Origin: Fidelibacterota bacterium
GTDB taxonomy: Bacteria > Fidelibacterota > Marinisomatia > Marinisomatales > TCS55
NCBI GenBank assembly: GCA_046861385.1
Contig: JBHHTW010000005.1
Span: 32,001-96,000 of the forward strand
Reading direction: 5' to 3'
DNA length: 64,000 bases
Shown here: positions 12,132 through 52,147 of the stretch, in pieces
Layout: every line of letters starts with the position of its first letter
How positions within the stretch are numbered: the stretch's first letter is position 1
The notes under the pieces: generated by a model
What the model saw: the letters and a program-made list of their open reading frames with translations, nothing else
What the model was told of the DNA's origin: nothing
The model's database searches: none
Made by a program: the position numbers and the translations under genes

Positions 12132-13221
12132 CAGGTGCTGATCCTTTCCAAAATATGATCAGCAATAACCGAAACGGCATTCGGTTTCCCCAACGCTTTT
12201 GAGTTTTTTGACATTTTGTTTAATGCGTATTCGTCTTTGAATAATTGATTTATTAATATGGATAAATTATCAGGACTCAAATCAGCCTCAGGAATCATTT
12301 TAGCTGCGTCTCTTTTATCCATAGCTGCAGCGTTGTGAGTTTGGTGATCCTCAGCCGCAGAAGGAAGGGGGATCATAATACTCGCCACTCCGCAAGCGGT
12401 CAGTTCCGTGATGGTCATTGCGCCTGCTCTGGTCAAAGCCAGATCTGCCGCTGCATATGCACTTTTCATATCATTAATGAATGGTTTTACACGAACAGAA
12501 TTTGTTTCATGATGTTTATATTGTTCAAAATGGTTCATTCCTGTTTGCCAAAGAACTTGGACGTCTTTCAAGTCATCAATCATTTCAGAAACACATTGGT
12601 TGATTACTATTGAACCCTGACTACCGCCAAAAACAAAAAGTGTTTTATTTTGATCCACAAAATCAAATTTCTTGAGAGCGGTCACGCGATCCCCATTGGT
12701 AATATCTTTTCGAACTGGATTTCCGGTTGAAAAAACGTTTTTTTTTTAATGAAATTTTCTACTTCATTAAACGAAGTAAAAACTATCTCTGCACTTTCAG
12801 CAAAATATTTTGTTGTTATTCCCGGGAATGAATTTTGCTCTTGAATGAAATAGGGAATATTTTGTTGACGGGCGACGAAAAGCGGCAGAGCGGAAGCATA
12901 TCCCCCGGTTCCAATGACAGCATTGGGCTGCAGTTTTTTCATTAACGCATTCGTCTTCATCTTTGACCGTATCAATTGTCCCGGTAATTGTAAATTTTTT
13001 CCGAAAGATGACCATGAAGTTCCCCGCTGCAATCCTCGGATGGGTAATAATGTATACATTAAACTTCGTCCTGGTAATATTTTCGCTTCAATTCCGAATC
13101 TGGATCCCACATAATGAATATCTGCGCCTGTTCGATCGCGGAGCTCTTCACCAATTGCCAGGGCAGGAAATAAATGACCTCCCGTTCCACCACCGCTAAT
13201 TAGAAATTGTAATTTAGCCAT
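12131..13221 (-). CDS. murG: MurG glycosyltransferase, split into two frames by a 1-nt indel near 12730-12747
   Basis: N-half has GGGTGGHLFP, GTGGYAS, EQNSFPG. C-half in a shifted frame has TGNPVR, GGSQGS, RAGAMT, HQTHNA. Adding one base gives a 363-aa protein. Confidence 0.93.
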
Positions 13222-28100: not shown

Positions 28101-28929
28101 TTTGATGATGTTTAATTGTCTCTCCGTTTTGGTCAAACCCATTGGCTCCGCGACCATAAAACTGGAACAAATCATCGTTGTCCAGTTTTTCATTATCTTC
28201 TCCCGTTACAAACATACTGATTTCAACCAGATTCTCTGGAATTTCAGAATAAGAAATAGTATTAATCACAGTACTGCTTCTGTCTCTTCCAAGAGCGGTT
28301 GATGTAAACAACATAAAGGAACGGGGATTCTCATTTTGCACAGTACCGCTAAGTGATATAAGGTCAGCACCGGAGAAGGAATACAATTTATCTTCCTTCA
28401 CCGAAAATTTCATCCATTTTCCTAAGGGTAATTCTGATTTTTTTTTGCGTGAATGTTTTTGGTCATAAAACCAATTTTTTGCGCTGTCCCAGTTCAGTAT
28501 TCGATTTTGTAGAAATAATGTTTGTGTCTTGTTTGCAGTAACCAGTCTATTGTGTGAAGGGAAAAATGAAATTTCAATCCAATAATTTTCATAGTAATAA
28601 TTATCGGAATTTGCTGGATTTATTTCAAGGGTAGCCGTTTCTAATGACCTCACTTTTTGCTGGTTGATCCAACGAACAGCCGGATGTTTGCCTTCAATGA
28701 AGAATGGGTTTTTTTGTTTATTTAATTCTCGAATGCTCAAAGTGGGTAATTCTTTATCTGGCAGACCGATCAGAAAGGTCAACGGTTCCAGGTCACTTTC
28801 TGTTTTAACGTCAAAATGGATCGAGATTACCAGTTTCTCATCAGTGGATTCATTTACTTCCCATTGCCTACCGGCAAAAATGAAAGTAATTAAAAACAAA
28901 AAATGAAAGTGTTTCCAAAATATTTTCAT
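25150..28929 (-). CDS. PorU-like C25 (gingipain-family) peptidase / type IX secretion sortase with C-terminal FlgD-Ig/CTD
   Basis: Signal peptide; IYDEFSGG..DPTAIR, GRFP, NYIGHG (His), AGTCSWG (Cys), LFGDP; NFPNP...WNGRD...GVYLYRL tail. Confidence 0.85.
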   Translation of the reverse strand: MKIFWKHFHFLFLITFIFAGRQWEVNESTDEKLVISIHFDVKTESDLEPLTFLIGLPDKELPTLSIRELNKQKNPFFIEGKHPAVRWINQQKVRSLETATLEINPANSDNYYYENYWIEISFFPSHNRLVTANKTQTLFLQNRILNWDSAKNWFYDQKHSRKKKSELPLGKWMKFSVKEDKLYSFSGADLISLSGTVQNENPRSFMLFTSTALGRDRSSTVINTISYSEIPENLVEISMFVTGEDNEKLDNDDLFQFYGRGANGFDQNGETIKHHQNLYFTDNHYWLLIPDDSNIRGKRIKTAASPSTTSLSLDYATSYIHIENDVINPFLGGLIWTGSGFGRGSSFTVVPKINDPEPSVSAEIKVSIRGSFTDLDYVMNTSGISKNHTIFVYLNERGIAKDTITFSGANQRSGKFSVNGFDLKEGVNLIYLDNKSTSSSYSFPHFDYATIRYGRKLNIDNSPFEFFAPITGNSVSFNFSGTLAPNVWDITDVTQPKMVDIAFNNSNYSMNVDLPSDTLMRFILFKDTDVSPITNMDLISGHSFTQLRHNNAGVDHLIIGPGKYESASQPLADHRGSSKFIPLETIYDEFSGGNADPTAIRRFLQWTNEQWSNPIPYSVLFMGDADYDYRNISGESGIKVPTIIKGAYGNRAVDDRLAAFSGRIPDLAIGRFPAKNVDEVQDYVEKIIEYETHPVLGYWRQRVTLVADDGARPEDDGPHGSISTGKSHTLNSENASKFISPRIEVQKLYMLEYPEVSDASSYGVIKPDATEALFDILTEGTAIINYIGHGSEHQWAQEKLLVQDRGDIGQIETNMKLPVWIAGTCSWGHFDFLDKESFAEELIRQPMEGASSIITTSRPIAVSSNAAYIVKLFKAIFPDLSVTDAPIGVVLQSVKDGNSSGELFHLFGDPSMPLPIPEKEINMTHIVPDTLSSLDTARVFGRLTSPTGASGVGVIRLADADRDVTRQYIINSKTQEISYTLPGPILFKGQFSITENNFSARLRIPKDISYSTTPAHLNSYVQLNSEPPTEALGILNNIFLKSGKPISDTQGPIISLETETGRLLQDNDHLQKDEKIIIRISDPIGINLTGEVGHEIIVSNLNDDMKKNMSSQYIYDENSITTGVIQFPHDGTDSPLSLHIKAWDNANNPSEKEFTLYLFENQTLNIFNVLNFPNPYSTTTQFAFELTSDANVSIDIFTLGGRRIMSIPEEQFSEGYHYINWNGRDAYGERLANGVYLYRLKANDGNQTVSVIKKLAKFQ

Positions 28930-39210: not shown

Positions 39211-40002
39211 ATGAAACTCTTTTGGTTTTTTTTTCTTTTTAGTTCTTTCACCATTGGGCAATCATTTGAGCCTTATTTTCAATTATTGGAAGATGGGAAT
39301 ATTAAAGCCGTTAAAGATCAACTCCCTGAATTAAAGTCAAAATATCCATACAATCCTACTCTGACTTATTTGCAGTTATTGATGAGTGACGATGGAGATT
39401 CAACAGTGGATCGTTTTAAATATTTTCTCAAACAGTATCCGGACAGTGAATATGCAGACGGCGCTGAAATGAAAATTGGTGAATACCTCTATTCTCGTGG
39501 ATTGTATGAACAATCCGGTCGACAGTTTAAAAAAATACCATTAATGTATCCAAAAAGCGAGCATATCCAGCGGGCAGTTGATCTGATGGTATTAAGTTTT
39601 AATGCCACAGGAGAATCAGACAGTGTACAATATTATCTCGCTAAGTATAAATGGAAATTTCCCCAATTAGAGGTGAAACAATACAATGTTAATTTGGAAA
39701 AAGCGGAATTAAAACAGGATAATCAATTCGATAAAAAAACGAAAACAGACGTAATAAATCCAGGCTCTCATCCTTGGGTAGTTCAATTAGGTGCTTTTGG
39801 AAAGTATTCTAATGCCAAAAGATTAAAGAACATCGTATCAGGGCTGGAATACCCCATTGAAATAGTTGAGGTGATGTCCAATGGGAAAAGATTACACGCA
39901 GTCAGGGTCGTTCGGTTTAAAACCAGGGAGGAAGCAGAACGTATCGGACGAGAAGTCAAAACGAAATACGGTGTAAATTTCAGGGTTCTTAAACGATCTT
40001 AA
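39211..40002 (+). CDS. Exported TPR/BamD-like + SPOR domain protein
   Basis: Signal peptide, YPDSEYA/YPKSEH repeats, C-terminal WVVQLGAF...RVVRFKTREEA. Confidence 0.85.
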   Translation: MKLFWFFFLFSSFTIGQSFEPYFQLLEDGNIKAVKDQLPELKSKYPYNPTLTYLQLLMSDDGDSTVDRFKYFLKQYPDSEYADGAEMKIGEYLYSRGLYEQSGRQFKKIPLMYPKSEHIQRAVDLMVLSFNATGESDSVQYYLAKYKWKFPQLEVKQYNVNLEKAELKQDNQFDKKTKTDVINPGSHPWVVQLGAFGKYSNAKRLKNIVSGLEYPIEIVEVMSNGKRLHAVRVVRFKTREEAERIGREVKTKYGVNFRVLKRS

Positions 40003-40008
40003 CACATT

Positions 40009-40101
40009 GGGAATGATTACGAGGCTGGTGTCCGTCGCGGTCTTCAAAACCGTTGTCCCCGCCATAAACGGGGAGCTGGGTTCGATTCCCAGGCGTTCCC
40101 G
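40009..40101 (+). tRNA. selC: tRNA-Sec (anticodon UCA)
   Basis: Acceptor GGGAATGA/GCGTTCCC, 4-nt TGGT D-loop, anticodon arm GCGGT-CTTCAAA-ACCGT, long variable arm TCCCCG/CGGGGA, T-arm CTGGG-TTCGATT-CCCAG, G discriminator. Confidence 0.93.
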
Positions 40102-40277
40102 CAAAACAGGGTTCCCTGCCTGCCGGCAGGGATTCTCACGCATTCCGCTAGTATTAATAAGTCTGTAAGTGCAGGTATACACAGGCATAGCGTTTTATAA
40201 TAATCATTATTGATCTAACCTGTAATTTTCAGTAAAATCGCCAAATGGTCTCAATTAGTCTGTTTTGATCTGTAATG

Positions 40278-40386: not shown

Positions 40387-40680
40387 ATGAGAATTATCGC
40401 AATTAGACCCTTAAGAAAATTTTGGAAAGAATATCATGACGCTGAGGTTCCCCTTAGAGCTTGGTATACAGAAGCAAAAGTCGCAAAATGGAGGAAACCG
40501 AATGATATTAAAGAGAAATATAGGTCAGTTAGCATCATTGCTAATAATAGGGCTGTATTTAACATTTCGGGGAATAAATACCGGTTAGTTGTTGCGATAA
40601 AATATGATTTCCAAATTGTATACATAAGGTTCATTGGGACTCATAAGCAATATGATACAATAAATGCGAAGGAGATTTAA
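40387..40680 (+). CDS. higB: Type II TA toxin HigB (mRNA interferase)
   Basis: MRIIA..LRKFW, VFNISGNKYRLVVAI, IRFIGTHKQYD. Confidence 0.93.
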   Translation: MRIIAIRPLRKFWKEYHDAEVPLRAWYTEAKVAKWRKPNDIKEKYRSVSIIANNRAVFNISGNKYRLVVAIKYDFQIVYIRFIGTHKQYDTINAKEI

Positions 40681-40683
40681 TAA

Positions 40684-41034
40684 ATGGTTATTAGACCCAT
40701 TAGAAATGAAAAAGATTATAAAGCAACATTGCAGCAAATCGAGAAACTTTGGAACTCGAGAATGGGATCACCTGAAGGAGATATTCTTGAAGTGCTAACA
40801 ATATTGGTTGCTGATTATGAAAAAGAGCATTATGACATTTTTCCTCCAGGACCTATAGGCGCTATCATGTTCCGTATGGAACAACTTGGTATGAAGCAAA
40901 AGGATTTGGGGGAATTGGTAGGTGGTTCGAATAGAGCCTCAGAATTGCTTCATGGTAAAAGAAAATTAACTGTGAAAATGATAAAAGTCATACATGAAGA
41001 ATTAAACATACCTGCTGAGTCATTATTAGGATAA
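40684..41034 (+). CDS. higA: Type II TA antitoxin HigA (HTH)
   Basis: PIRNEKDY, LVADYE, MEQLGMKQKDL...SELLHGKRKLT. Confidence 0.93.
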   Translation: MVIRPIRNEKDYKATLQQIEKLWNSRMGSPEGDILEVLTILVADYEKEHYDIFPPGPIGAIMFRMEQLGMKQKDLGELVGGSNRASELLHGKRKLTVKMIKVIHEELNIPAESLLG

Positions 41035-41206
41035 GAGTGCTAATGGGTGCAATACCAAATTTTTGGTGATCTCTGTCATATAAGTTATTTGGCTTAATAT
41101 AACAATATTGCAGTAAGCTATATACAAAAAGTATTCTTTAGTTATGTATTGTTCAATTTGTAATTAACTTTGAAGGTAGTGCAATGAGCAATAAATGGGA
41201 GTCAAT

Positions 41207-41566
41207 ATGAAAAATCCACCACTCTATCACTACCACGCTAAGGTAGTATCCGTTTATGATGGGGATACATGTACAGTCGATATTGATTTAGGGCTCAATG
41301 TTTGGGCTCGGGGAGAAAAAATTCGCCTGGCGCGCATAAATACTCCTGAACTTCGTAAAAAAGAAAGGCCAAAGGGATTAATATCGAGAGATTATCTCCG
41401 GAAGCGGATTTTGAATCAATCCATTGTTTTGGAGACGATAAAAGATAAAAAAGGGAAATATGGGCGCTATTTGGGTGAAATATGGGTTCAAACAAATAAT
41501 AAAAATTATACAAATATCAATGATGAGTTAGTGATGGCAGGAATGGCAGAATATAAATCCTATTAA
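41207..41566 (+). CDS. Thermonuclease (SNase-like) family protein
   Basis: VYDGDT, IRLARINTPE, GKYGRYLG, NDELV..GMA. Confidence 0.88.
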   Translation: MKNPPLYHYHAKVVSVYDGDTCTVDIDLGLNVWARGEKIRLARINTPELRKKERPKGLISRDYLRKRILNQSIVLETIKDKKGKYGRYLGEIWVQTNNKNYTNINDELVMAGMAEYKSY

Positions 41567-41809: not shown

Positions 41810-42793
41810 ATGAATACCAAAAAAAGCTCGATATTACTATTGTTGATTATTGGGTTAATGATCACATCCTGTGAGGATGATAAAAATAAAGCTCCAATTA
41901 CCGACCTAACTGTTGCGACGGTTTCCAGCGCACCAACACTTGATGGCGTTGGCAGTGATGCCGCTTGGGATCAGGCCGATGAATTGGTCGTTACAGTTGG
42001 GCTAGATGCATCTCATGCAAATGCTTTTGGTGAAATAGACGTAAGTTTAGCCGCGGTAACTGATGGCGACAATTTATACATTAAAGCCACATGGGCAGAT
42101 GCTACAGAAAGCATTGATAAGAAACAATGGGAATATGAAAATGGTGCATGGTCACAGTCAGGGAACGAAGACAGAATGTTTTTCTTCTTTGATATGGGTG
42201 AGAATGGCTCTGATAAAGCAGATTGTGCAACCATGTGTCATGTAGCAGAAGGTAAAATGTGGACATCTACTGGCATTGTTGATCAGTGGCATTGGAAAGC
42301 CCATCGTACCGCGCCCATTCACCATGCTGATGATAAACATATTAATAACGATTATCAAGAATCAGATGGCACTCTCTACCATGACGGTGGACAACATGGC
42401 GATTCAAAAACAACAGGTTTGTACAATGATAACAAGGACGCAAATGGTCTTCCAATTTACTCTGGTCCAATTACAGACGGACATTATCTCATTTTGCCCG
42501 AGGGACAAACTGCAGATTCATATTTCACACCTTTTGATAGCAGCACCACATCCACCAGCTCTCTGATTCCGGGCTACTGGTTAAATGAAAATGCAGACGG
42601 CAGCAGGGCAGATGTGACTGCTTATTCTCAATATAGTAACGGTACTTGGACGGTTGAATTCAGCCGTGCTTTGAATACCGGGAATAGTGATGATGTTGTA
42701 TTTGGTAGTGGCGATATTCAAGTAGTAATTGCAATTACGGACAACTCAGGTGGTGATCATAGTGGATCAGCTCCTTTCCTAATTAAATTCTAA
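41810..42793 (+). CDS. Lipoprotein with ethylbenzene-dehydrogenase-gamma/DOMON-like heme-binding domain and a CX3CH motif
   Basis: Lipobox ITSC; APTLDG...W, LYIKATWAD, EDR, CATMCH, DQWHWKA, WTVEFSRALNTG..DD. Confidence 0.8.
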   Translation: MNTKKSSILLLLIIGLMITSCEDDKNKAPITDLTVATVSSAPTLDGVGSDAAWDQADELVVTVGLDASHANAFGEIDVSLAAVTDGDNLYIKATWADATESIDKKQWEYENGAWSQSGNEDRMFFFFDMGENGSDKADCATMCHVAEGKMWTSTGIVDQWHWKAHRTAPIHHADDKHINNDYQESDGTLYHDGGQHGDSKTTGLYNDNKDANGLPIYSGPITDGHYLILPEGQTADSYFTPFDSSTTSTSSLIPGYWLNENADGSRADVTAYSQYSNGTWTVEFSRALNTGNSDDVVFGSGDIQVVIAITDNSGGDHSGSAPFLIKF

Positions 42794-42804
42794 ACAAGAA
42801 TAAT

Positions 42805-42839
42805 AAAAATAGGGGTGATTTATTCACCCCTGTTTTTTT
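42805..42839 (+). terminator. Rho-independent terminator after the first cluster gene
   Basis: AGGGGTGA-TTTAT-TCACCCCT followed by GTTTTTTT. Confidence 0.75.
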
Positions 42840-42883
42840 ATATTATATCCAATTCTATAATTAATAAAGTAAAGGAGAACTCA

Positions 42884-43459
42884 GTGAAAAATATATTGAT
42901 AATGAGTATATGGGTAATGACAGCCTTGCTTTTTGGTGATGATAAAGCCGATAAGACAAATATATATGCCGGTGTGAAACGCTGTAAAGTATGTCATGAA
43001 ACAGAAGATATGGGGAATCAATATACCGTTTGGGAGCACTCCAAGCATGCCAAAGCATATGAAACTTTATTAACAGACGAATCTGCAGAAATTGCTAAAT
43101 CATGGGGACTCAGTCTCCCTGCGAATGAAGCACCGGAATGTTTAAAATGCCACGTAAGCGGGTATAATAATGAAAAAGCAGAATTCGGGAAAAAATTTAA
43201 CAAAGAAGATGGCGTCCAATGTGAAAGCTGTCACGGACCGGGTGAAGCATATCGAAAAGAGGAAATCATGTGTGACCGTGAATTATCCCTCGCAAATGGA
43301 CTGATTTTACCCAAACCGGAGGATTGTTTAACTTGCCATAATGAAGAAAGTCCCAAGTATAAAACATTTACTTATGAAGCCTATTATGCAAAAATGATTC
43401 ATAAGAAAAACCCTGACTATAACTGTCCTTCAGATGAAGAAGAAGATGAAGATTGGTAG
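42884..43459 (+). CDS. Tetraheme cytochrome c, c554-like (paralog 1)
   Basis: GTG after AAGGAG; signal peptide; CKVCH, CLKCH, CESCHGPG, CLTCH; acidic tail. Confidence 0.9.
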   Translation: MKNILIMSIWVMTALLFGDDKADKTNIYAGVKRCKVCHETEDMGNQYTVWEHSKHAKAYETLLTDESAEIAKSWGLSLPANEAPECLKCHVSGYNNEKAEFGKKFNKEDGVQCESCHGPGEAYRKEEIMCDRELSLANGLILPKPEDCLTCHNEESPKYKTFTYEAYYAKMIHKKNPDYNCPSDEEEDEDW

Positions 43460-43970
43460 TATGATGGTGAGAGGTTCTATAAATATAATTAATCATATAT
43501 TCATTTTATCCATAATGGGATTAATGATCGCCGGCTGCTCCAAAAAACCCATTAAGCAACCCATAGCCTACAACCACTCAATCCACGTTAATGATGCTGG
43601 ATTGGATTGTACCGATTGCCATTCTGGAGCGGTAAATAAAATTCGAGCCACGTTGCCTTCTATTAAAAAGTGCAAATCGTGCCATTCAGAAATGCAGGGA
43701 GAAAGCATCGCAGAAACACTGGTAGTTAAAGCGGTTAACAATAAAGAAGAAATCCCTTGGCAACGAATATATCAACTCAAAGACCACGTATTCTTCTCAC
43801 ACCGCCGACATGTAACAGCAGGAAATCTATCCTGTGAATTATGTCATGGAAATGTAGAAGAAATGGTGGTGCCACCTAAACAGCCATTGATTCCAATATC
43901 CATGGATAATTGCATTAAATGCCATGATAGTAAATCAATATCAACCGATTGTCTGAATTGTCATGTCTGA
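43434..43970 (+). CDS. Pentaheme cytochrome c, QrcA/ActA-like
   Basis: QPIAYNHSIH, CTDCH, CKSCH, IPWQRIY...HVFFSHRRHV, CELCH, CIKCH, CLNCH; possible lipobox IAGC; exact start uncertain. Confidence 0.9.
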   Translation: MKKKMKIGSMMVRGSINIINHIFILSIMGLMIAGCSKKPIKQPIAYNHSIHVNDAGLDCTDCHSGAVNKIRATLPSIKKCKSCHSEMQGESIAETLVVKAVNNKEEIPWQRIYQLKDHVFFSHRRHVTAGNLSCELCHGNVEEMVVPPKQPLIPISMDNCIKCHDSKSISTDCLNCHV

Positions 43971-46383
43971 AAAAAAAGTAATAAGTAGAAGAAAATTTTT
44001 AAAAATATCCGGTCTGGCTTCCGGAGGCGCTGCAATTGGTACTGCAGTTTTTTCACAAGCGCTGGGAGTATCAGAAAAAGCAATTAATGTTCTACAGAAT
44101 GGACCCGGAAAAGTATCTTGGCGAGCCACCGCATGCCGGCTATGTCCTGGCGGCTGCAGCCTGTCTGTAAAAAGGGTTGATGGAATTCCAATCGGTCTAA
44201 AAGGAAATGCTTTCTCGCCAATTAATAGAGGCGGTACGTGTCCTGCGGCATATGCTAACCTTGAATTACTTTACCATCCTGATCGATATACCGAACCCCT
44301 TGTTCGTCCCAATGGCGACAAGAACAAAGATGCGACTCCTGATTCTTGGAGGAACGTCTTTAATAAAATAACTAATTCTCTCAATTCTTTAGTTGAAAAT
44401 AACCAATCCCATAAAATTGCAATCATTAATAGTGATGATTCACCCATAATGGAAGAAGCATGGAGAAATTTTGCGAATTGGATTGGAACACCCCATTATT
44501 TTCAAGAAAAGCACTCCGGGGACTTTTCTAACTCTTCCTTTATTACACAAGGAATGTTTTGTTCGCCAAAATACGATTTAATGAATTCTGATTGTATCGT
44601 GAGTCTTGGTGCCAATTTTCTTGAGGAAGGCGCTCCTGTCCATTTTAACCAATTGTTGAGCCAATTTAAAGATGTAAATAATATTTCTCGTAATAAAATG
44701 GTTTATGTGGGGCCTAGAGCAAATGCCACGGCTGCCAGTGCCCATAAATGGATCCCAATAAATCCCGATACTTGGGGGACCCTTGCATTAGGACTTGTTC
44801 ATGTCCTCATTGATAAGCGTTATATCGACTTGGATTACTTTCGAACTCATACTCCTGATTTTTCTGATTGGGTTGATGAAAAAGGCCAAAAACATATTGG
44901 ATTTGAAAATATAATTCGTTCTGAATTTCATCCTAAACTTGTAGAAGAAATTACGGGCATTTCTGAGTCGCAAATTAATGAACTGGTCGAGTTAATTCAT
45001 AGCCGTGAAACACCGGTTGTTTTGTTTGGATCAGAAGCTCTAGAGTCACCCCGAGGAGAACTCCATGGCTGGGCTGTTCAAAGTTTGAATTATCTCATTG
45101 GTAGTATTCAGCGTACCGGGGGTTGTTTTTTTACGGATAATATTGATATAGAAAAATTGCATATACAGGATTATACTGGTCAGGATATTCAAAGTTTGTT
45201 TACCTCTGATAAAAGTCATGCCTTGAATAAAGCATCTTTAGATATTTTTGCTAAAAAGGTCGGAAATAATTCTCATAATGATATAGAATTATTAATTATT
45301 AATAAAGCAAATCCGGTTTATTATGGCGAGGACAGAGAGAAATGGGAATCATTATTGAAGCATATTCCAACTGTAATATTTATAGGAGATATTCCAAACG
45401 AAACCAGTTATCATGCAGATATAGTTCTTCCTGCCCATTCAGAATTTGAAAATTGGGATTTGGTTGAAGATATTCCCGGTGTAGCTGCTAAGGTTGCTGT
45501 CCTCCAAAGAGCAGTTATAAAACCAATGTATGGTACAAAAAGTAGTTATTCGATCCTTAAATCGTTCGCCGATGGAATGAATAACAAAACCAATTCGTTT
45601 TTAAAAGGTGTTGATTCAAAATCGATTGTAAAAGAAAGACTGAAGAAAATTTATCAGCCTAAACGAGGTCAATTATTTACATCCCAAACGACAGAGGAAT
45701 GGAAAGATTTATATAATAATCATAAAAAAATAAAAATTTCCGATTCAAGAAAAATTTTTATGAAGGGAATGTTGAAAACCGGCGGATGGTGGGATCCTTC
45801 CCTTGTGGGTCAGGCCGACCAAATAGAAATTGGCAAAAACAAGAAGGATCAATTCACTTTTCTAAAAAGAATCCTTGAATCATTTCAAGGTGAAGCATCA
45901 GATGAAGCTCAATTTCTGAAAGAACTTTTGGCTTCTAATACCTATCCAAAAAATTCAAAAAAATATAATGCATCTGAGTTATCAGGCTTCCCACTGACGT
46001 TAATGTCCGGATATCCCATTACCAATCCGTACGGCAGGACTGTCTCTTCTCCAACCATGGTGGAGACAATGGGAATTGTTCGGGAAATCTATTGGGAAAC
46101 CTGGGCAGAGATTAACCCTGAAACTGCAGAAAAATATCACATCGCAGATGGAATGATAATTCAATTAGATTCATCGGTGGGAAAAATTCAAGTTCGGGCA
46201 AGAGTCAGACCGATCATCCATCCGGATGTTGTCTATGTCCCCTTGGGACTCGGTCGTGATAATGTGGGAAGATTCACATCGAATAAGGGATCTGATCCTC
46301 GGAACTTAATGGTATCCCAACCAGAAATATATTCCGGAAATACAATTTTGTCCGGTACACCAATTAAAATAACGTTGATTTAG
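43963..46383 (+). CDS. Tat-exported molybdopterin-oxidoreductase-fold subunit, QrcB/ActB-like
   Basis: SRRKFLK Tat motif; CRLCPGGC...TCP Fe-S motif; YHPDR, ADIVLPA, EINPETA. Confidence 0.88.
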   Translation: MSEKKVISRRKFLKISGLASGGAAIGTAVFSQALGVSEKAINVLQNGPGKVSWRATACRLCPGGCSLSVKRVDGIPIGLKGNAFSPINRGGTCPAAYANLELLYHPDRYTEPLVRPNGDKNKDATPDSWRNVFNKITNSLNSLVENNQSHKIAIINSDDSPIMEEAWRNFANWIGTPHYFQEKHSGDFSNSSFITQGMFCSPKYDLMNSDCIVSLGANFLEEGAPVHFNQLLSQFKDVNNISRNKMVYVGPRANATAASAHKWIPINPDTWGTLALGLVHVLIDKRYIDLDYFRTHTPDFSDWVDEKGQKHIGFENIIRSEFHPKLVEEITGISESQINELVELIHSRETPVVLFGSEALESPRGELHGWAVQSLNYLIGSIQRTGGCFFTDNIDIEKLHIQDYTGQDIQSLFTSDKSHALNKASLDIFAKKVGNNSHNDIELLIINKANPVYYGEDREKWESLLKHIPTVIFIGDIPNETSYHADIVLPAHSEFENWDLVEDIPGVAAKVAVLQRAVIKPMYGTKSSYSILKSFADGMNNKTNSFLKGVDSKSIVKERLKKIYQPKRGQLFTSQTTEEWKDLYNNHKKIKISDSRKIFMKGMLKTGGWWDPSLVGQADQIEIGKNKKDQFTFLKRILESFQGEASDEAQFLKELLASNTYPKNSKKYNASELSGFPLTLMSGYPITNPYGRTVSSPTMVETMGIVREIYWETWAEINPETAEKYHIADGMIIQLDSSVGKIQVRARVRPIIHPDVVYVPLGLGRDNVGRFTSNKGSDPRNLMVSQPEIYSGNTILSGTPIKITLI

Positions 46384-46393
46384 GGAGTGAATT

Positions 46394-47080
46394 ATGGCTA
46401 AATGGGGAATGGTCATTGACTTGAATAAATGCACGGGATGTGGATCCTGTGTAAATTCATGTCGAATGGAAAATAATGTCCCCAATGTTGGCGATAAGGC
46501 TGCACAGGCAGGACGCGCCATGGATTGGATGCAAATCATTACTGAATATGAAGGTGAATATCCTAATATTCGAATAACTCATATACCGAGACCGTGCTTT
46601 CATTGTGAAAATCCTCCATGTACAAAGGTTTGCCCTGTACATGCCACATACCAGAATGATGACGGTTTGATTGGACAAATTTATTACCGTTGTATTGGAT
46701 GTCGGTTTTGTATGGCAGCTTGCCCATATTCCGCAAAAACATTTAATTATAGTAAACCAAATATTCCGGAAGCATATGAGGATAATTTGAACCCGGATGT
46801 TTCTCGTAGAATGAATGGTGTGGTTGAAAAATGCAGTTTCTGTTCCCATCGATTGATTAAAGCAAAAGATGAAGCTCGTTTTGAGGGGAGAGAAATGCGT
46901 GAAGAAGACTACCAGCCGGCATGTGTGGAATCTTGTCCAACTGATGCAATTACATTTGGTGATCTGGAGAATTCGGACCATCATGTTCATGAATTAAAAC
47001 ACTCAAACCGTGCATTTAGATTGGAAGAAGAATTGGGAACAGAACCTAAAGTCTATTATCTAACGAAGGAAGATAGATAA
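46394..47080 (+). CDS. Four-cluster Fe-S protein (NrfC/QrcC-like)
   Basis: 16 Cys: CTGCGSCVNSC, CFHCENPPCTKVCP, CIGCRFCMAACP, CSFC...PACVESCP. Confidence 0.93.
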   Translation: MAKWGMVIDLNKCTGCGSCVNSCRMENNVPNVGDKAAQAGRAMDWMQIITEYEGEYPNIRITHIPRPCFHCENPPCTKVCPVHATYQNDDGLIGQIYYRCIGCRFCMAACPYSAKTFNYSKPNIPEAYEDNLNPDVSRRMNGVVEKCSFCSHRLIKAKDEARFEGREMREEDYQPACVESCPTDAITFGDLENSDHHVHELKHSNRAFRLEEELGTEPKVYYLTKEDR

Positions 47081-48426
47081 TGAATGAGCTACGCAAAGAC
47101 CCGGATTATGCCCTTTACCGCCCTATATTAGTCAGTGACCGTCGATTTTATTGGGCGGTAGGCTTCTTATCTGTTGTGATTATTTGGGCATTGTATATGT
47201 ATATACAGCAATTGATAAACGGCCTTGAGGTCACCGGAATGAACAATACGGTAACTTGGGGATTTTATATTATCAATTTTGTTTTCTTTATCGGTATCAG
47301 CCATGCCGGGACACTGATTTCGGCCATACTAAGACTTTCCCAGGCAGAATGGCGTCGACCCATTACCAGAATGGCCGAGGTTATTACAGCTATTGTGTTG
47401 ATGATTGGCGGTTTACACCCAATCATTGACTTGGGTCGACCTGACCGCGTTTTAAATGTGTTTACGTTCGGAAGATTACAGTCTCCCTTATTATGGGATG
47501 TAACAGCCATTTCACTGTATTTTACCGCCAGCACGGTATATCTTTTTGTTCCCATGATCCCGGACATTGCTCTTCTTCGGGATCGGACCAATACAAAATT
47601 AAAATGGCTTTATACATTTTTAAGCTGGGGATATCAAGGAACCGAACGACAAAAACATATATTGGAAAGAGCCATTACGATTTTGATGGTTGCAGTAATA
47701 CCAATTGCCGTCAGTGTTCACACTGTTATTTCTTACATATTTTCAATGACACTCCAATCCGGTTGGCATAGCACCATTTTTGGCCCCTATTTTGTGACGG
47801 GCGCCATATTTTCCGGTACGGCTACCTTATTGGTCGTAATGATTTTTTTCCGAAAGTTTTTTCATCTGGAAAATTATTTAAAAGAAATTCATTTTCAATA
47901 CATGGGAATCCTGCTTCTGGTTTTCTCATTATTTTGGACTTATTTCACATTTAGTGAGTACCTCACAGGTGTTTATGGGAATGAACCCCAGGAAATGAAC
48001 GTTATTATGTTCAAATTTACGGGACCTTATGCCCCTTATTTCTGGGCAATGGTTATATGTAATTTTGTGGTTCCTGTGATAGTGCTATCTTTTAAGAAAT
48101 TAAAAAAGATCCCGGGCATTTTGTTTGCTTCAATTTGCGTCATCATCGGCATGTGGTTGGAACGCCTGACCATTATTGTTCCCTCCTTATCCAATCCGCG
48201 GTTACCGATCATTAGTGAGCCATACATTCCTTCGATGACCGAGTGGGCGTTATTTGCCGGTGGTATCGCTGTATTTTGTTTGTTTTTCCTATTATTTTCA
48301 AAAATTTTCCCAATAATATCAATCTGGGAAATAAGAGAAGGCCGTGCAGAAGGATTGGATGAAGCAAAAGAAAGGTTGGATTCTTACTTGCCCGATTCGG
48401 ATATGATCAACAAGGAGGTGATCTAA
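47080..48426 (+). CDS. NrfD-family quinone-interacting membrane subunit (ActC/QrcD-like)
   Basis: About 10 TMs; WGFYIINFVFFIGISHAGTLISA, DLGRPDR, SPLLWD, WHSTIFGPYF, GMWLER. Confidence 0.92.
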   Translation: MNELRKDPDYALYRPILVSDRRFYWAVGFLSVVIIWALYMYIQQLINGLEVTGMNNTVTWGFYIINFVFFIGISHAGTLISAILRLSQAEWRRPITRMAEVITAIVLMIGGLHPIIDLGRPDRVLNVFTFGRLQSPLLWDVTAISLYFTASTVYLFVPMIPDIALLRDRTNTKLKWLYTFLSWGYQGTERQKHILERAITILMVAVIPIAVSVHTVISYIFSMTLQSGWHSTIFGPYFVTGAIFSGTATLLVVMIFFRKFFHLENYLKEIHFQYMGILLLVFSLFWTYFTFSEYLTGVYGNEPQEMNVIMFKFTGPYAPYFWAMVICNFVVPVIVLSFKKLKKIPGILFASICVIIGMWLERLTIIVPSLSNPRLPIISEPYIPSMTEWALFAGGIAVFCLFFLLFSKIFPIISIWEIREGRAEGLDEAKERLDSYLPDSDMINKEVI

Positions 48427-48677
48427 TGGAAAAGAGAAAAAGAGTAACACCATTCTATATTTTATTTCTTCAAATTCTTAGCATCTTAATTATCTGGCTT
48501 CTATTTGTTGGGGTCAATTTTTGGATTTTTAATCTCATATCCTTATCGAGATATTTACAGGATGCACAAAATGCCACTTTGGTTATATCCCTTATTATTC
48601 TGCCTATATTTGGACTATTAGCATGTGTATTAACCTATGTATTTATAGGCTTGAGAAAAGGGAGAATTACTCATTAG
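48426..48677 (+). CDS. Small 2-TM membrane protein
   Basis: 83 aa, RBS AAGGAGG, start overlaps the NrfD stop, two hydrophobic helices. Confidence 0.8.
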   Translation: MEKRKRVTPFYILFLQILSILIIWLLFVGVNFWIFNLISLSRYLQDAQNATLVISLIILPIFGLLACVLTYVFIGLRKGRITH

Positions 48678-48696
48678 GCTTTTCAAGTCGAAATGG

Positions 48697-49935
48697 TTGC
48701 TGTTATTACTGCTGACCAGCCTTTCTTATGGCAGTAAGTTTTACGGATATTTTTCAACGAATACATATACATTCTCTCGCAAAAATCTAGACGATAGTAC
48801 ATTGGTTCATATACGCCTTTACCAGTCTGTTTGGCTTCAGGGGAGGGATGTTCTTATAAAAAAAAGCCGGTTAAATATCTCCGGTGTATTTTACATGGAC
48901 CCTGTAAACCCCTTTCACTATGGAGACGTAGAAAATTCAACTGATGGAGATTATGTATTCCAAATATATAATTTTAATTATTCCACATCTTGGTTTTCAG
49001 ATAGAATGAAGGTGAATATTGGTCGTCAATTTCAATATTCAGTTTCTGATGCAGGTCGATTGGACGGTATATCGACAGATTACACATTTCGGCAACTAAA
49101 ATTCAAAGGATTCGCTGGGTTATATGTTCCTGCATCCGGCATGACGGAAAATCCATCTGATGATCATTTTTATGGTGGTGAAATTTCCTGGAAAAAATCT
49201 AAATCGTTTGATTTGAAACTTGGTTATTCAGATAAATCACATTCCAGGGAAATTTATCATTCAAATGCGGTTTTCAAGGATGTGGAAGTTCCACCATCGA
49301 TTCGTCAGCGAGTTGGAATCCAAAGCAGTCTTAAAAGGGGGCACCTGACCTTTTATGCCAGAACCAGGCACCGCATTCGTGAATTTGAATTAGACGACGC
49401 CACATTCCAAACCACCTATCATGGAAATAGGGATCAACGGCTACAAAACGTTGTTTTTGAATATAATCTTCGAAAACCGCAAATACCTGATAATTCAATA
49501 TTTTCTGTTTTTGATTCTTATGCCTCTCAAGAGTTTTCGTTAAGAGGGCGCTTATCATTGGTGAAGAAAATATCCGGATGGTTTAATTTTCGACAGGTTC
49601 TGTTTAATAATGATCAATCCTCAATAATATTATTGGGAGTGGGAATGTCCGTGGTACGTGCAGAATTTGTTCGTCAGGATGGATATGGCGGCAGCTCAAA
49701 CCGAATGGTTGTCGGAGCTCGGAAAAAAATGGGGAAACTGAATTTATCCAGTCGTCTTTCTTTGGGGAATTACCGCTTAATCGAAGGAAAGTGGAATGAT
49801 TTATCTACTGTTACTTTTTCAGCATCTTATCCCATGTGGAAAAAATTTGAAATCAATTCTGAAATCCATGTATTGAAAAATAAATATTATTCAAATGATA
49901 CAAGATTACAGATGGGCATCAGGTACCGGTTATGA
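48697..49935 (+). CDS. Putative outer-membrane beta-barrel (porin)
   Basis: Signal-like N-terminus, alternating amphipathic strands, IGRQ..., GRLDG, C-terminal LQMGIRYRL; no CxxCH; start codon uncertain. Confidence 0.75.
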   Translation: MLLLLLTSLSYGSKFYGYFSTNTYTFSRKNLDDSTLVHIRLYQSVWLQGRDVLIKKSRLNISGVFYMDPVNPFHYGDVENSTDGDYVFQIYNFNYSTSWFSDRMKVNIGRQFQYSVSDAGRLDGISTDYTFRQLKFKGFAGLYVPASGMTENPSDDHFYGGEISWKKSKSFDLKLGYSDKSHSREIYHSNAVFKDVEVPPSIRQRVGIQSSLKRGHLTFYARTRHRIREFELDDATFQTTYHGNRDQRLQNVVFEYNLRKPQIPDNSIFSVFDSYASQEFSLRGRLSLVKKISGWFNFRQVLFNNDQSSIILLGVGMSVVRAEFVRQDGYGGSSNRMVVGARKKMGKLNLSSRLSLGNYRLIEGKWNDLSTVTFSASYPMWKKFEINSEIHVLKNKYYSNDTRLQMGIRYRL

Positions 49936-51098
49936 GAAATACTAAAGGATTTATAATCTATATTAGTATCATTGGCTGTGTAAACATTGTTCATAGTGCG
50001 ACATCGGATCCAATCATTCAATTTAGTCATGACCTTCATGTTGCTGATTTGGAAATAAAGTGTACAAAGTGTCATAATCCAAAAGTACTCAAAACGAGCA
50101 TGGGTTCAGATGACGTTATTCTACCCACGGAAAAACGCTGTATGAAATGTCATAAAGTGTGGAAGAAAAAAGGGGAATGTGAAAATTGTCATTTGAAAGA
50201 ACCTCCTTATGAAACTTTTCCTAAAGTAACCCGAATTTTTAAATTTCCACATAAAACTCATTGGGTTGATCAAAAAATTGAATGCAATGAATGTCATGGA
50301 AACATGGCTGGTGTTGATAATTTTCCTCCCATCCCGGTTATGGATGATTGTATGTCATGTCATGCAGAGAAACACGCACCTGAATATTGCTCTTCCTGCC
50401 ACGATAATGTCGCATATTTACGTCCTAAAGATCATTCGGAAGCCTGGCTCACTGATCATGATTTAGCTGCATTGTCCAATGCTTCTGATTGTCAAATTTG
50501 TCATTCCCAAAATACATGCGACAATTGCCATAGCGGCGGTCTACTCGGATTTGATGAATTACCAAAGATGAATCCGGTACCAGGTTATCGTCCCGGAGCA
50601 ATTGTCAATAAAATGTTATTAAATAGCAATCATGCCTTAGACTATGTTTACTCCCATGGGCTGGATGCAAGTACAAAAGCAAAAGATTGCAGTGTGTGTC
50701 ATGAATCGCCAGAATTTTGTACCGCTTGCCATCAGAACAAGGACGAACAGATTTTAAATAAGCCCGATTTTCATGGCGGATTGGACTGGGGAGCAGTTCT
50801 ATATAAAGAGGATACGGATTTTGCCAATGATATCACGGGCGGTGTCCATGCGGAAATGGCGAGGAAAGATATTGAACTTTGTCAATCTTGCCACGATGTG
50901 GAAGGGGCAGACCCCACTTGTATCAGGTGTCATGCGGACAGAGATGGAATTCAAAATACAGATCCAAAAACTCACGCAGCAGGATTTATGAAAAATGTCC
51001 AGGGCGATTGGTGTACAGAACCGGTCTCAATGTGTTTTGTGTGTCATACCCCGGAGGAAAGCAAGACAAACGGCTTTTGCGGATATTGCCATAATTGA
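49932..51098 (+). CDS. 14-heme cytochrome c (c3/c7-like repeats)
   Basis: Counted CxxCH: CTKCH, CMKCH, CENCH, CNECH, CMSCH, CSSCH, CQICH, CDNCH, CSVCH, CTACH, CQSCH, CIRCH, CFVCH, CGYCH. Confidence 0.93.
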   Translation: MRNTKGFIIYISIIGCVNIVHSATSDPIIQFSHDLHVADLEIKCTKCHNPKVLKTSMGSDDVILPTEKRCMKCHKVWKKKGECENCHLKEPPYETFPKVTRIFKFPHKTHWVDQKIECNECHGNMAGVDNFPPIPVMDDCMSCHAEKHAPEYCSSCHDNVAYLRPKDHSEAWLTDHDLAALSNASDCQICHSQNTCDNCHSGGLLGFDELPKMNPVPGYRPGAIVNKMLLNSNHALDYVYSHGLDASTKAKDCSVCHESPEFCTACHQNKDEQILNKPDFHGGLDWGAVLYKEDTDFANDITGGVHAEMARKDIELCQSCHDVEGADPTCIRCHADRDGIQNTDPKTHAAGFMKNVQGDWCTEPVSMCFVCHTPEESKTNGFCGYCHN

Positions 51099-51099
51099 T

Positions 51100-51483
51100 A
51101 TGAAAATAATCAACACATCAATCAGTATTTTTATCATTTCTTTGATTATAGGGTGTTCAGAATTAGATAAATCATTTAAAGAGCCTTTGCCAGATAGGGT
51201 AACATATAAATCCCATATTAAAGCTATTCTTGATAGAAGTTGTGTCCGGTGTCATGGAGGATCGGAACAAATTGTCCCAGATGTTAATTTTTCATCTTAT
51301 AGTGAAATTAAGCTGCTAATCGGGACAGATGTTTCATCCGATCTTATTGTGCCGGGGAATCAATCTTCCGGTTTGCTAAGAAAAACCAAACCTGGCGGAA
51401 GTATGAATCTGAACCTCAATGATAACAGAGATTACGATTTGCTTTATCAATGGATTGTCCTTGATAGTGTAGCACAAAACTAA
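51100..51483 (+). CDS. Monoheme cytochrome c lipoprotein
   Basis: ATG 51100; lipobox IIGC; VTYKSHIKAILDRSCVRCHG...GGSM...WI. Confidence 0.82.
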   Translation: MKIINTSISIFIISLIIGCSELDKSFKEPLPDRVTYKSHIKAILDRSCVRCHGGSEQIVPDVNFSSYSEIKLLIGTDVSSDLIVPGNQSSGLLRKTKPGGSMNLNLNDNRDYDLLYQWIVLDSVAQN

Positions 51484-51556
51484 AGCAAATACAGAGCAGA
51501 TCTGGTGCGCTTGCCACAACGGTATGTTTGACTTGACCGGCAAGAAAGGAATAAAC

Positions 51557-52147
51557 ATGATTAAATACGTAACAGGTTTTTTACTCCTCGGAAGTATTGT
51601 ATGGACTCAGCAACCAGAATATGTAGGAACGAATAAGTGTAAAGCTTGCCACTCCAGCAAGAAGAAAGGAGCCCAATACAAACTTTGGAAAGAAACGAAA
51701 CACGCCAAGGCATTTGACCTGCTTCTCACTGAAGAAGCAAAACAGATAGCGAAAGAGAGGGGTTTAGCAAATACACCGGATAAAGCTCCGGAATGTTTAG
51801 AGTGTCATACCGTTGGGTTTGGCTCCGGCGGATATGAAATAATGGATGGGGAATTCTGGTCTCCAGCTGAGGATGATCGGGATGGGAAGAAAGCCGTAAA
51901 ACGAATGGAAAATCTTAAAAATGTTGGGTGTGAAAATTGTCATGGCCCTGGCAGTGCTTATAAGAAAAAGAAAATTATGGAAGCAATTTTTGCAGGAACT
52001 GTATCAGGCGATGAATATGGTTTATCAAAAGCGACCGAAGTAACTTGTAAAAAATGTCATAACGAACGCAGTCCTTCCTATAAACCTTTTAATTTTGAAG
52101 AAAGAATAGCTGAAATTACTCACCCGTTTCCTGATAGTATGAAATAA
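51557..52147 (+). CDS. Tetraheme cytochrome c, c554-like (paralog 2)
   Basis: ATG after AAGGA; signal peptide; CKACH, CLECH, CENCHGPG, CKKCH. Confidence 0.9.
   Translation: MIKYVTGFLLLGSIVWTQQPEYVGTNKCKACHSSKKKGAQYKLWKETKHAKAFDLLLTEEAKQIAKERGLANTPDKAPECLECHTVGFGSGGYEIMDGEFWSPAEDDRDGKKAVKRMENLKNVGCENCHGPGSAYKKKKIMEAIFAGTVSGDEYGLSKATEVTCKKCHNERSPSYKPFNFEERIAEITHPFPDSMK

Follow-up and report, generated by a model that had tools for sequence, protein, structure and literature searches.

A cluster of 11 co-oriented genes from a Fidelibacterota bacterium (g01 to g11; + strand, positions 41810–52147 of a 64,000-nucleotide stretch of contig JBHHTW010000005.1, assembly GCA_046861385.1, hereafter “the window”) appears to encode a route for electrons through the entire cell envelope, and our judgement inclines, by no great degree, towards electrons travelling along it outwards. 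At the inner membrane, a complex related to Qrc and to alternative complex III (ACIII), made up of g03, g04, g05, g06 and g07, would exchange electrons with the quinone pool; soluble tetrahaem cytochromes of the c554 type, g02 and g11, would shuttle them through the periplasm; the 14-haem cytochrome g09, threaded into the 22-strand barrel g08, would conduct them across the outer membrane; and at the cell surface they would arrive at two lipoprotein haem proteins, the monohaem g10 and the EB_dh-fold protein g01. In the outward direction, quinol would pass its electrons to an acceptor outside the cell, probably one of rather high potential; oxides of Mn(IV) or Fe(III), humic substances or a partner cell are examples. 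The proposal draws on computed folds, haem and iron-sulfur (FeS) motifs, the loss of a Mo ligand, co-conservation in related loci and the predicted fit between barrel and cytochrome, from which we infer in what order the carriers act, which way the electrons flow and what accepts them.

Fidelibacterota, also known as Marinimicrobia, belong to the uncultured bacteria that are most abundant in the dark and oxygen-poor ocean; they occur widely in its interior and in its oxygen-minimum zones, where little is known of how they can respire. A functional conduit would open particulate or partner-borne electron acceptors or donors to these bacteria and would add one more player to the marine redox cycling of Mn, Fe and humics.

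The haem motifs alone set the cluster apart from its surroundings. CxxCH, counted as a motif, occurs 28 times (four in g02, five in g03, 14 in g09, one in g10 and four in g11; none in g01 and g04 to g08), and g01 contains one CX3CH (CATMCH). These are exactly the counts that the first-pass annotation, a reading of the DNA letters and their open reading frames (ORFs), had given for its 11 same-strand genes; its family labels, too, agree gene by gene with matches in Pfam and NCBIfam, with hydrophobic spans and with AlphaFold2 results. In the window's 40 other ORFs of 140 aa or more (15,812 residues), CxxCH is absent altogether, and 29 of the 35 six-frame occurrences in the whole window fall inside the cluster stretch, a density far beyond chance.

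The predicted outer-membrane barrel and its 14-haem cytochrome

The 412-aa product of g08 (48697–49935, +) had been proposed to be an outer-membrane barrel, and its predicted fold bears this out: AlphaFold2, run on an alignment of homologues, returns a model with 22 long strands (mean pLDDT 82.3, pTM 0.73), whose top Foldseek matches in the PDB are all outer-membrane barrels (the usher pores PapC and FimD, AlgE, and porins). At a maximum E of 10, a setting at which the HMMER filters still lose most matches above about 0.1, g08 matches no Pfam model, and its sole NCBIfam match is at chance level (mini-MOMP, E 0.098); the MtrB/PioB barrel models (PF11854, TIGR03509) are thus not found by either search. 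Similarly, the MtrA/DmsE model TIGR03508 does not match g09 and stays below threshold for g02, g03 and g11 (35.7 bits or less; cut-off 192). None of the Mtr family models gives a match, and the parts are, as first noted, not recognisable as Mtr.

A word-indexed search finds 16 homologues of g08, the named ones from Fidelibacterota and one FCB-group bacterium. A profile built from 14 homologues reaches 374 representative clusters, 243 of them at E ≤ 1e-10; ten of these were looked up, all are named “hypothetical”, and one comes from the Ignavibacteriaceae (E 1.7e-59). The nearest structural clusters in the Atlas are unnamed Ignavibacteriota proteins of 421–433 aa, and feature-based neighbours include Bacteroidota as well (TM 0.84–0.87). 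The gene g09 (49932–51098, +) overlaps the g08 stop, as is usual in related loci. All 14 CxxCH of its product are invariant in 14/14 sequences, together with a further 11 His and 2 Met. Its closest solved relative is the dodecahaem cytochrome GSU1996 of Geobacter (3ov0, 6.4e-22). A profile search returns 109 proteins at E ≤ 1e-5, 87 of them with 14 CxxCH, and full-length homologues of about 400 aa with 33–38% identity occur in Ignavibacteriaceae, Ignavibacterium sp., Melioribacteraceae strain 4301-Me and Bacteroidota. Because homologues of the barrel and of the 14-haem cytochrome are present in cultured Ignavibacteriota, the outer-membrane part of the system is open to genetic testing.

The pairing of the two proteins, which the first-pass annotation had suggested, is supported by complex prediction, in which g09 is threaded through the barrel. 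For g08 (residues 13–412) with g09 (residues 23–388) the score is 0.72 (0.73, 0.72 and 0.71 in the individual runs) vs. 0.01 for the best of three controls; 116 of 157 solved complexes reach this mark, as do 2 of 215 mismatched pairs, counts that apply only roughly because our prediction used our own alignments. The runs share at least 58% of their contacts, with a partner pLDDT of at least 66. In the predicted complex, g09 contacts strands all around g08, with the invariant g08 segment 261–275 lying against the invariant g09 segment 310–318; residues 145–371 of g09 touch the barrel, and its N-terminal third is free.

Barrel and cytochrome are also conserved together. One scan of the species representatives of GTDB, based on the barrel alignment and using two peptide patterns, by which distant relatives such as those in Ignavibacteriota would be missed, yielded 20 loci, titled in their records as Marinimicrobia, Neomarinimicrobiota or Fidelibacterota (9), “FCB group” (3), “Bacteroidetes” (1) and “uncultured bacterium” (7). 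The 14-haem gene lies directly 3' of the barrel gene in all 19 loci in which the DNA continues, and a gene for a monohaem lipoprotein (115–130 aa) follows it in 15/15 evaluable loci. Genes for the Qrc/ACIII-like complex are found directly upstream of the barrel in 16 of 18 evaluable loci (on the short contigs L005 and L010, only for the part that fits), in line with the earlier expectation that the two modules are conserved together.

A module of this kind is known from genomics, namely from Ignavibacterium album. The accessible part of the respective paper assigns the pcc cluster of this species to the passage of electrons through the outer membrane (Shi et al., 2014; PMC4245776): it lists the porin IALB_1839, the periplasmic cytochrome IALB_1838 (400 residues and 14 haem motifs, the largest of the Pcc), the outer-membrane cytochrome IALB_1837 with an atypical haem motif, and the periplasmic cytochrome IALB_1840, and gives 18–22 strands for Pcc porins and 5–14 haems for Pcc periplasmic cytochromes (PMC4245776). 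With 22 strands in g08 and 14 haem motifs in the adjacent, secreted g09, the module described here lies within both of these published ranges, and candidates for the outward-facing lipoprotein cytochrome of a Pcc are g10, present in 15/15 loci, and g01. Since the full-length Ignavibacteriota homologues of g08 and g09 fit the description of the I. album proteins, as far as that part of the paper gives it, the outer-membrane module can be regarded as a member of an FCB-type Pcc. The likeness, which was drawn by description only, extends to the combination of porin, 14-haem cytochrome and outer-membrane cytochrome in g08, g09 and g10; a Qrc/ACIII-like complex or an EB_dh lipoprotein is not mentioned for the I. 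album cluster in the accessible text (PMC4245776). The Pcc of Geobacter (OmbB/OmaB/OmcB) and MtrCAB of Shewanella have the architecture that is proposed here, i.e., a cytochrome wire inside a barrel and a lipoprotein cytochrome outside. However, a monohaem and/or EB_dh-fold haem protein would serve here as outer partner instead of a 10–12-haem cytochrome, and the cluster itself also encodes the enzyme on the quinone side.

The quinone-side complex and the probable periplasmic shuttles

Judged by their sequences, g03 to g07 form a complex of the Qrc/ACIII family, which is Qrc-like in content, contains an ActC-like quinone subunit and is a full member of neither type. The pentahaem lipoprotein g03 (43434–43970, +; ActA/QrcA-like) scores 83.7 bits with the NCBIfam model of QrcA, NF041781 (cut-off 180), and matches the solved ActA chains of ACIII (8k9e_A, 1.3e-22; 6f0k_A, 2.8e-20). 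The four-cluster FeS subunit g05 (46394–47080, +; QrcC/ActB2-like) scores 300.1 bits with NF041782, QrcC (cut-off 400), and matches the C-terminal, FeS half of ActB (6f0k_B, 3.9e-55); its 16 Cys, invariant in 15/15 sequences, are sufficient for four cubane clusters. The NrfD-family subunit g06 (47080–48426, +; PF03916, 2.2e-37), which would interact with quinone in the membrane, aligns over residues 21–433 with four solved ActC chains (3.3e-74 to 7.3e-70), and scores 254 bits for ActC, 119 bits for DsrP and 40.8 bits for QrcD (cut-off 570). It is followed by g07 (48426–48677, +), an 83-aa protein with two hydrophobic, probably membrane-spanning segments, for which no relative is found in Pfam and NCBIfam (both to E 10) or in the PDB; a homologue lies 3' of the NrfD gene in 16/16 loci with this region present.

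The large subunit g04 (43963–46383, +), QrcB/ActB1-like, has a molybdopterin-type fold and keeps a Tat signal for export. It scores 238.4 bits with NF041783, QrcB (cut-off 440), and 181 bits with the ArrA model; its best solved match, over the full length, is ArrA (6cz7, 1.1e-43), with ActB at just 1e-13. The four Cys of the FS0 cluster are invariant in 13/13 sequences. Where the ArrA chain has its Mo-coordinating Cys, at position 153, the alignment shows a gap in g04, the surrounding segment being variable among 14 homologues. No Cys outside FS0 is conserved (C200 in 2/14, C211 in 10/14, C388 in 2/14), nor is any Cys, Ser or Asp in the ligand segment. Because the Mo-ligand Cys is missing and no substitute is conserved, g04 is probably non-catalytic, and the earlier statement that no catalytic terminal subunit is evident holds. 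The Cys, Sec, Ser or Asp that coordinates Mo in the catalytic complex iron-sulfur molybdoenzymes (Psr, Phs, Arr, Ttr) has no conserved equivalent here, and the models of type II dimethyl sulfoxide (DMSO) reductases remain below their cut-offs (alpha, TIGR03479, 74.6/984.75; beta, TIGR03478, 82.9/480.7; gamma, TIGR03477, 25.7/169.85). Within the inner module, moreover, g04 is conserved least (53–85% identity, vs. 74–95% for g05 and g06). Its orthologues with at least 49% identity (24 matches) bear only the names Marinimicrobia, Fidelibacterota, FCB group and, once, “Bacteroidetes”; the next matches have at most 34%.

Qrc of sulfate reducers (QrcABCD) shares with g03 to g06 the order of four subunits and a molybdopterin-fold subunit without Mo ligand, and its models are the best NCBIfam matches of g03, g04 and g05. 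However, all four equivalog cut-offs are missed by the scores given above, and the complex described here differs by its ActC-like membrane subunit, the additional two-span protein, the link to an outer-membrane conduit and its occurrence in another phylum. Among the subunits of ACIII (ActABCDEF; 6btm, 6f0k, 6lod, 8k9e), ActC, the FeS half of ActB and ActA are matched by g06, g05 and g03, respectively. In contrast to ACIII, ActB is split over two genes here, and there is one NrfD-family ORF among the 11 genes and no ActF; g07 and g10 show no match to ActD or ActE chains, and no oxidase gene is found beside the cluster. The periplasmic shuttles would be provided by g02 (42885–43459, +; PF13435, 3.2e-19) and g11 (51524–52147, +; PF13435, 4.4e-16), two tetrahaem cytochromes of the c554 family with four CxxCH each; a match of both to a UshA-like selenoprotein is confined to the c554-like domain.

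A chain with the same three tiers has been proposed for direct interspecies electron transfer (DIET) in syntrophic sulfate reducers, where, according to the accessible part of the preprint, the Oet conduit in the outer membrane, periplasmic c554 and c3 cytochromes and Qrc act together (bioRxiv 10.1101/2022.11.23.517749). There, however, the parts are dispersed in the genome and, as far as this was tested, show no sequence relationship to those described here, and the proposed conduction is inward; here a single cluster encodes them.

The related loci suggest that the inner module may be exchangeable. In L016 and L017, the two loci without Qrc/ACIII-like genes, the genes for the EB_dh protein, the barrel, the 14-haem and the monohaem cytochrome are accompanied by genes for a Rieske protein, a cytochrome b, a membrane-anchored 9-haem cytochrome and a g11-type tetrahaem cytochrome. 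The Rieske/cytochrome b/9-haem set is found between g10 and g11 in L002, L003, L006, L008, L015, L016 and L017; in L009 and L019 it lies 3' of g10, and a g11-type gene was not detected there. As far as the DNA reaches, it does not occur in the window, L001, L007, L012, L013 and L020. The position of Rieske/cytochrome b in place of the Qrc/ACIII-like genes at L016 and L017 suggests that the two are interchangeable quinol-oxidising feeders. By gene content, then, two complexes of the quinol-oxidase type would feed, alternatively or together, one conserved outer-membrane module, and a Qrc/ACIII-type complex would be hard-wired to a porin-cytochrome conduit in apparent interchange with a Rieske/cytochrome b complex. 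The chain had been called self-contained, which is uncertain in view of the nine loci with an added Rieske/cytochrome b set downstream of g10 and of the terminator that separates g01 from the other genes (see below).

The set in L002 (12936–15726), in which the 9-haem protein has a C-terminal span, corresponds to a bc-type complex with a multihaem c subunit, and in L014 Rieske and cytochrome b genes lie upstream on the opposite strand. More large cytochromes are encoded further downstream in L002 (16713–19947), L006 (16993–18906) and L015 (16655–21165), among them 17-haem proteins with a NapC/NirT-type N-terminal anchor and an 836-aa 17-haem protein with a weakly cytochrome b561-like C-terminal part; the downstream region of L002 also encodes a 6-haem lipoprotein with a collagen-like Gly-X-X stretch past the lipobox.

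Candidate surface proteins, direction of flow and alternative explanations

The lipoprotein cytochrome g10 (51100–51483, +) has a lipobox Cys19, one CxxCH at 48–52 and Met102, all invariant in 15/15 sequences; the invariant CxxCH together with the invariant Met makes His/Met ligation of its haem probable. The AlphaFold2 model has a pLDDT of 76.5, and its best fold match, PccH of Geobacter, is not significant (E 0.46, TM 0.31). Membership in the PccH or PSCyt1 families was considered and rejected, the weak matches being limited to the haem-binding stretch, and no family is given. The second surface candidate, g01 (41810–42793, +; 327 aa), is a lipobox-bearing haem protein with an EB_dh/DOMON fold (PF09459, 6.6e-28), a distant relative of NxrC and EbdC, whose Atlas model (pTM 0.82) has only EB_dh proteins as nearest folds (TM 0.76–0.80). 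Its CX3CH (C-x-x-M-C-H), Met150 and His317 are invariant in 9/9 sequences. Met150 lies just before a WHWKA motif, at the Met-ligand region of EbdC, and the position of the EbdC Lys ligand is taken by Ala321; the CX3CH is a candidate site that may carry a c-type haem, which the sequence by itself does not reveal.

In Bacteroidota, lipoproteins are directed to the surface by acidic residues that follow the lipid-anchor Cys. The lipobox Cys of g01 is followed by an acidic run in 8/8 complete N-termini (CEDD, CDDN, CEED, CESNDD and similar), and g10 has Glu or Asp at position +3 in 14/15 sequences; in g03, neutral or basic residues follow, and an acidic residue at +2/+3 is present in only 1/11 visible cases. 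We infer that g01 and g10 are located at the cell surface, g01 being a possible surface component of the non-multihaem type. The slot upstream of g02, occupied by g01 in the window, is variable: in 14 evaluable loci it holds an EB_dh gene (8), a gene for a di-haem lipoprotein of 257–278 aa with a class I cytochrome c domain (3; L006 and L015 by Pfam, L007 by likeness), a 16-haem cytochrome gene (L009), or nothing comparable (L012 and L018). A variable, export-tagged outermost component is usual in porin-cytochrome systems. In L016 and L017, where g02 to g07 are missing, the EB_dh gene still adjoins the barrel gene. The L009 gene (806–3562, +) encodes a 918-aa cytochrome with 16 CxxCH, the C-terminal sorting domain of the type IX secretion system (T9SS; PF18962) and a FlgD_ig domain (PF13860); a multihaem cytochrome as T9SS cargo is unusual.

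Between g01 and g02, a hairpin with a 14-bp stem and a run of seven T (42805–42837, +) resembles an intrinsic terminator. A hairpin follows the EB_dh stop directly in 9/9 cases (the window, L001, L002, L003, L008, L013, L014, L016 and L017), with differing stems, energies of −18.8 to −34.3 kcal/mol and a clear T-run in some of them only, which suggests termination or mRNA stabilisation that would separate the expression of EB_dh from that of the downstream genes. Given this conservation, g01 would be a semi-independent transcription unit, linked to the conduit by position only.

How much of this is new can be judged from the open-access literature, supplements aside. No work that joins Marinimicrobia, multihaem cytochromes and extracellular electron transfer was found there, and publications that pair Marinimicrobia with “multiheme” or “multi-heme” do not assign such genes to the phylum in their accessible parts; a Lake Mendota preprint, a bioanode paper and an oil-structure paper contain no data on a Marinimicrobia conduit. 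The first-pass annotation had spoken of a lineage without known extracellular electron transfer, with which this agrees. A search for Qrc joined to a porin-cytochrome conduit gave only unrelated matches, and among the works listed for EB_dh and extracellular electron transfer, none mentions ethylbenzene dehydrogenase. For Melioribacter, NrfCD has been proposed to feed periplasmic multihaem cytochromes toward a hypothetical outer-membrane Fe(III) reductase (PMC3534657), and another Melioribacter paper has nothing on porins or multihaem cytochromes (PMC5492636). The “psrABC” genes of Marine Group A were considered as the same system and rejected: as far as the accessible text goes, their order is psrBCA, and the product lacks a Tat signal, is predicted to be cytoplasmic and has no cytochromes beside it (PMC3906813). 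The earlier claim of an undescribed system can therefore be kept in part. The fusion of a Qrc/ACIII-like complex to a porin-cytochrome conduit, the EB_dh haem lipoprotein and the occurrence of either module in Fidelibacterota look new, no description of them having been found; the barrel/14-haem module, with or without the small lipoprotein cytochrome, is of the I. album type known from genomics (PMC4245776, accessible part).

The direction of flow, reduction or uptake, cannot be read from the sequence, as had been said at the outset. That outward flow seems to us the somewhat better-founded choice is due to the likeness of the quinone subunit to ActC, to the apparent interchange between the Qrc/ACIII-like complex and Rieske/cytochrome b, and to the heterotrophic gene context. 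Several points weigh against an outward path or against parts of it. Qrc, closest by subunit content and by three profile models, runs inwards, from cytochrome to menaquinone, so that the analogy would favour uptake. High potentials are suggested by the haem of g10, probably His/Met-ligated, and by the Met-ligated haem pocket of g01; such potentials would suit uptake from Fe(II) no less than the reduction of strong oxidants, and would suit the reduction of Fe(III) oxides poorly. The rule about acidic residues comes from Bacteroidota and is no more than suggestive for g01 and g10. The membership of g01 is weaker because of the conserved terminator hairpin and because EB_dh is missing from 6 of 14 loci. 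The success of the complex prediction may partly reflect learned likeness, since the porin-cytochrome complex MtrCAB has been solved, yet no sequence similarity to Mtr is detectable; the I. album pcc cluster is itself a genomic prediction only; and the terminal acceptor is not readable from the sequence.

The same hardware might therefore work inwards, with a donor outside the cell, be it Fe(II), reduced sulfur or minerals, a surface acting like a cathode or a partner cell, passing electrons via g08/g09 and the c554 tetrahaems to quinone at the Qrc-like complex, a possibility that we rate as real and rather unlikely. Three of the four inner-membrane subunits score best on Qrc models, and some homologues are called “menaquinone reductase” by JGI; all four Qrc models, however, stay under their cut-offs, and g06 is far nearer to the ActC of quinol-oxidising ACIII than to QrcD (254 vs. 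40.8 bits). Methionine ligation beside CxxCH/His is typical of high-potential haems, and the invariant Met in g10 and in the EbdC ligand region of g01 would accordingly suit uptake; Met-ligated haems speak against a low-potential Fe(III) oxide as acceptor and favour either stronger oxidants, such as Mn oxides, or uptake. Genes similar to SQR, DsrE and DsrC lie beside the cluster in L013 and L016, and a model of uptake by an outer-membrane conduit plus Qrc has been published for syntrophic sulfate reducers, as the accessible part of the preprint describes it (bioRxiv 10.1101/2022.11.23.517749). Against this stand the window neighbours, which look heterotrophic (PFOR, malic enzyme, peptidases), and the Rieske/cytochrome b complex, normally a quinol oxidase, that stands in at L016 and L017.

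There are two further explanations. ACIII normally donates to periplasmic or membrane acceptors, and the cluster might accordingly encode a periplasmic network feeding reductases or oxidases elsewhere, next to an ordinary porin or uptake channel that is adjacent by chance; the window has no multihaem surface cytochrome of the MtrC/OmcB type, and the fold matches of the barrel are generic (usher pores, AlgE, porins). This is very improbable, however, given that the barrel gene adjoins the 14-haem gene in 19/19 loci, usually with overlapping stop and start, that complex prediction places the cytochrome inside the barrel (0.72 vs. 0.01), that neighbouring cytochromes in related loci carry surface-export signals and that the barrel fits no porin family model. 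Still more remote, and in our opinion scarcely credible, is a working molybdoenzyme of the Psr/Phs/Arr type in g04 to g06, acting on a soluble substrate such as polysulfide, thiosulfate or arsenate and served by the cytochromes and the barrel, with g01 as a type II DMSO-reductase gamma subunit. To be sure, the alignments of g04 with ArrA (6cz7, 1.1e-43) and with the PhsA and ArrA models span the entire protein, which keeps the Fe4S4, molybdopterin and dinucleotide-binding domains, and EB_dh is the family of the haem subunit of type II enzymes. But the Mo-ligand Cys of ArrA has no counterpart in a segment that varies among the 14 homologues, g04 is the least conserved subunit of its module, and catalytic models remain far under their cut-offs (ArrA 181/1600, PhsA 160/694, type II alpha 74.6/985); moreover, EB_dh stays with the barrel at L016 and L017, where g04 and g05 are missing.

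A bolder version of the outward path would be that Fidelibacterota respire extracellular solids or particles, such as Mn and Fe oxides, through the conduit, and that the terminal surface protein is the EB_dh/DOMON-fold haem lipoprotein instead of a multihaem cytochrome. It would then represent a new outward-facing class, swappable with T9SS-exported multihaem cytochromes in sister lineages. We put this forward as speculation, which is decidedly more likely to fail than to hold.

Gene limits and genomic surroundings

Most genes of the cluster overlap or abut, as first described; g01, set apart by its terminator spacer, does not. The longest ORF of g02 begins at 42815, but a start at GTG 42885 is likelier because of the Shine-Dalgarno sequence AGGAG in front of it and because homologues have 191 aa. 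With this start, the spacer between g01 and g02 measures 91 bp and contains the hairpin, and g01 therefore does not abut g02. For g08, the longest ORF with an ATG, GTG or TTG start gives a signal peptide of 12 residues that lacks a charged n-region. The true start is probably ATT 48673, overlapping the stop of g07 (ATTAG); with it, the signal peptide would regain its charged n-region and look as normal as in the homologues. The start of g10 is not 50995 but ATG 51100, 1 base past the g09 stop, and the protein thus has 127 aa. A promoter scan was uninformative (52 sites vs. 48.2 in shuffles).

Regulator and sulfur-related genes accompany some of the related loci. A gene for an Rrf2-family regulator lies 3' of the monohaem gene in L006 (12760–13245, by Pfam) as well as in L007, L009 and L019 (by N-terminal likeness), and one for a MerR-family regulator with a Cys-rich C-terminal part lies 5' of EB_dh in L016 (8378–8830, by Pfam) and L013 (2624–3082, by N-terminal likeness). 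Just downstream of the cluster, in reverse orientation, L013 (12812–15577, −) and L016 (16277–19192, −) encode an SQR-like flavoprotein (Pyr_redox_2), a DUF1641 protein and a DsrE-family protein, L013 also a DsrC-like one; these genes may reflect a link to sulfur metabolism or mere neighbourhood.

Upstream of the cluster, at a distance of 1.7 kb, lies a gene for tRNA-Sec (40009–40102, +; Rfam RF01852, 62.6 bits; anticodon tca according to ARAGORN), and the organism therefore makes selenoproteins; a 98-aa ORF on the minus strand that overlaps it (39892–40188) is probably spurious. In the fetched stretches of 14 related loci, no tRNA-Sec was found. A tRNA beside the cluster as a sign of a genomic island was thus considered and dropped, as its presence in the window and in 0/14 loci permits no conclusion. 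Between tRNA-Sec and the cluster (40387–41566, +) are genes for a HigB toxin (PF09907, 3.3e-32), an HTH_3 antitoxin-like protein and a protein with a staphylococcal-nuclease fold (PF00565). Other loci have different genes at this position, in L008 restriction-modification-like ones (by reading only), and the upstream flank looks variable.

The rest of the window is ordinary chromosome, with a dcw/mur cluster, aconitase, PFOR, malic enzyme and peptidases. MurG seems to be divided between two overlapping ORFs on the minus strand (Glyco_transf_28 N-terminal part, 12682–13221; C-terminal part, 12131–12685); a frameshift or an error in the sequence could explain this, or the gene may truly be split. 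A 1259-aa peptidase of the C25 (gingipain) family (25150–28929, −) ends in a C-terminal FlgD_ig domain as found in T9SS cargo, which is consistent with surface export of the FCB type in this organism.

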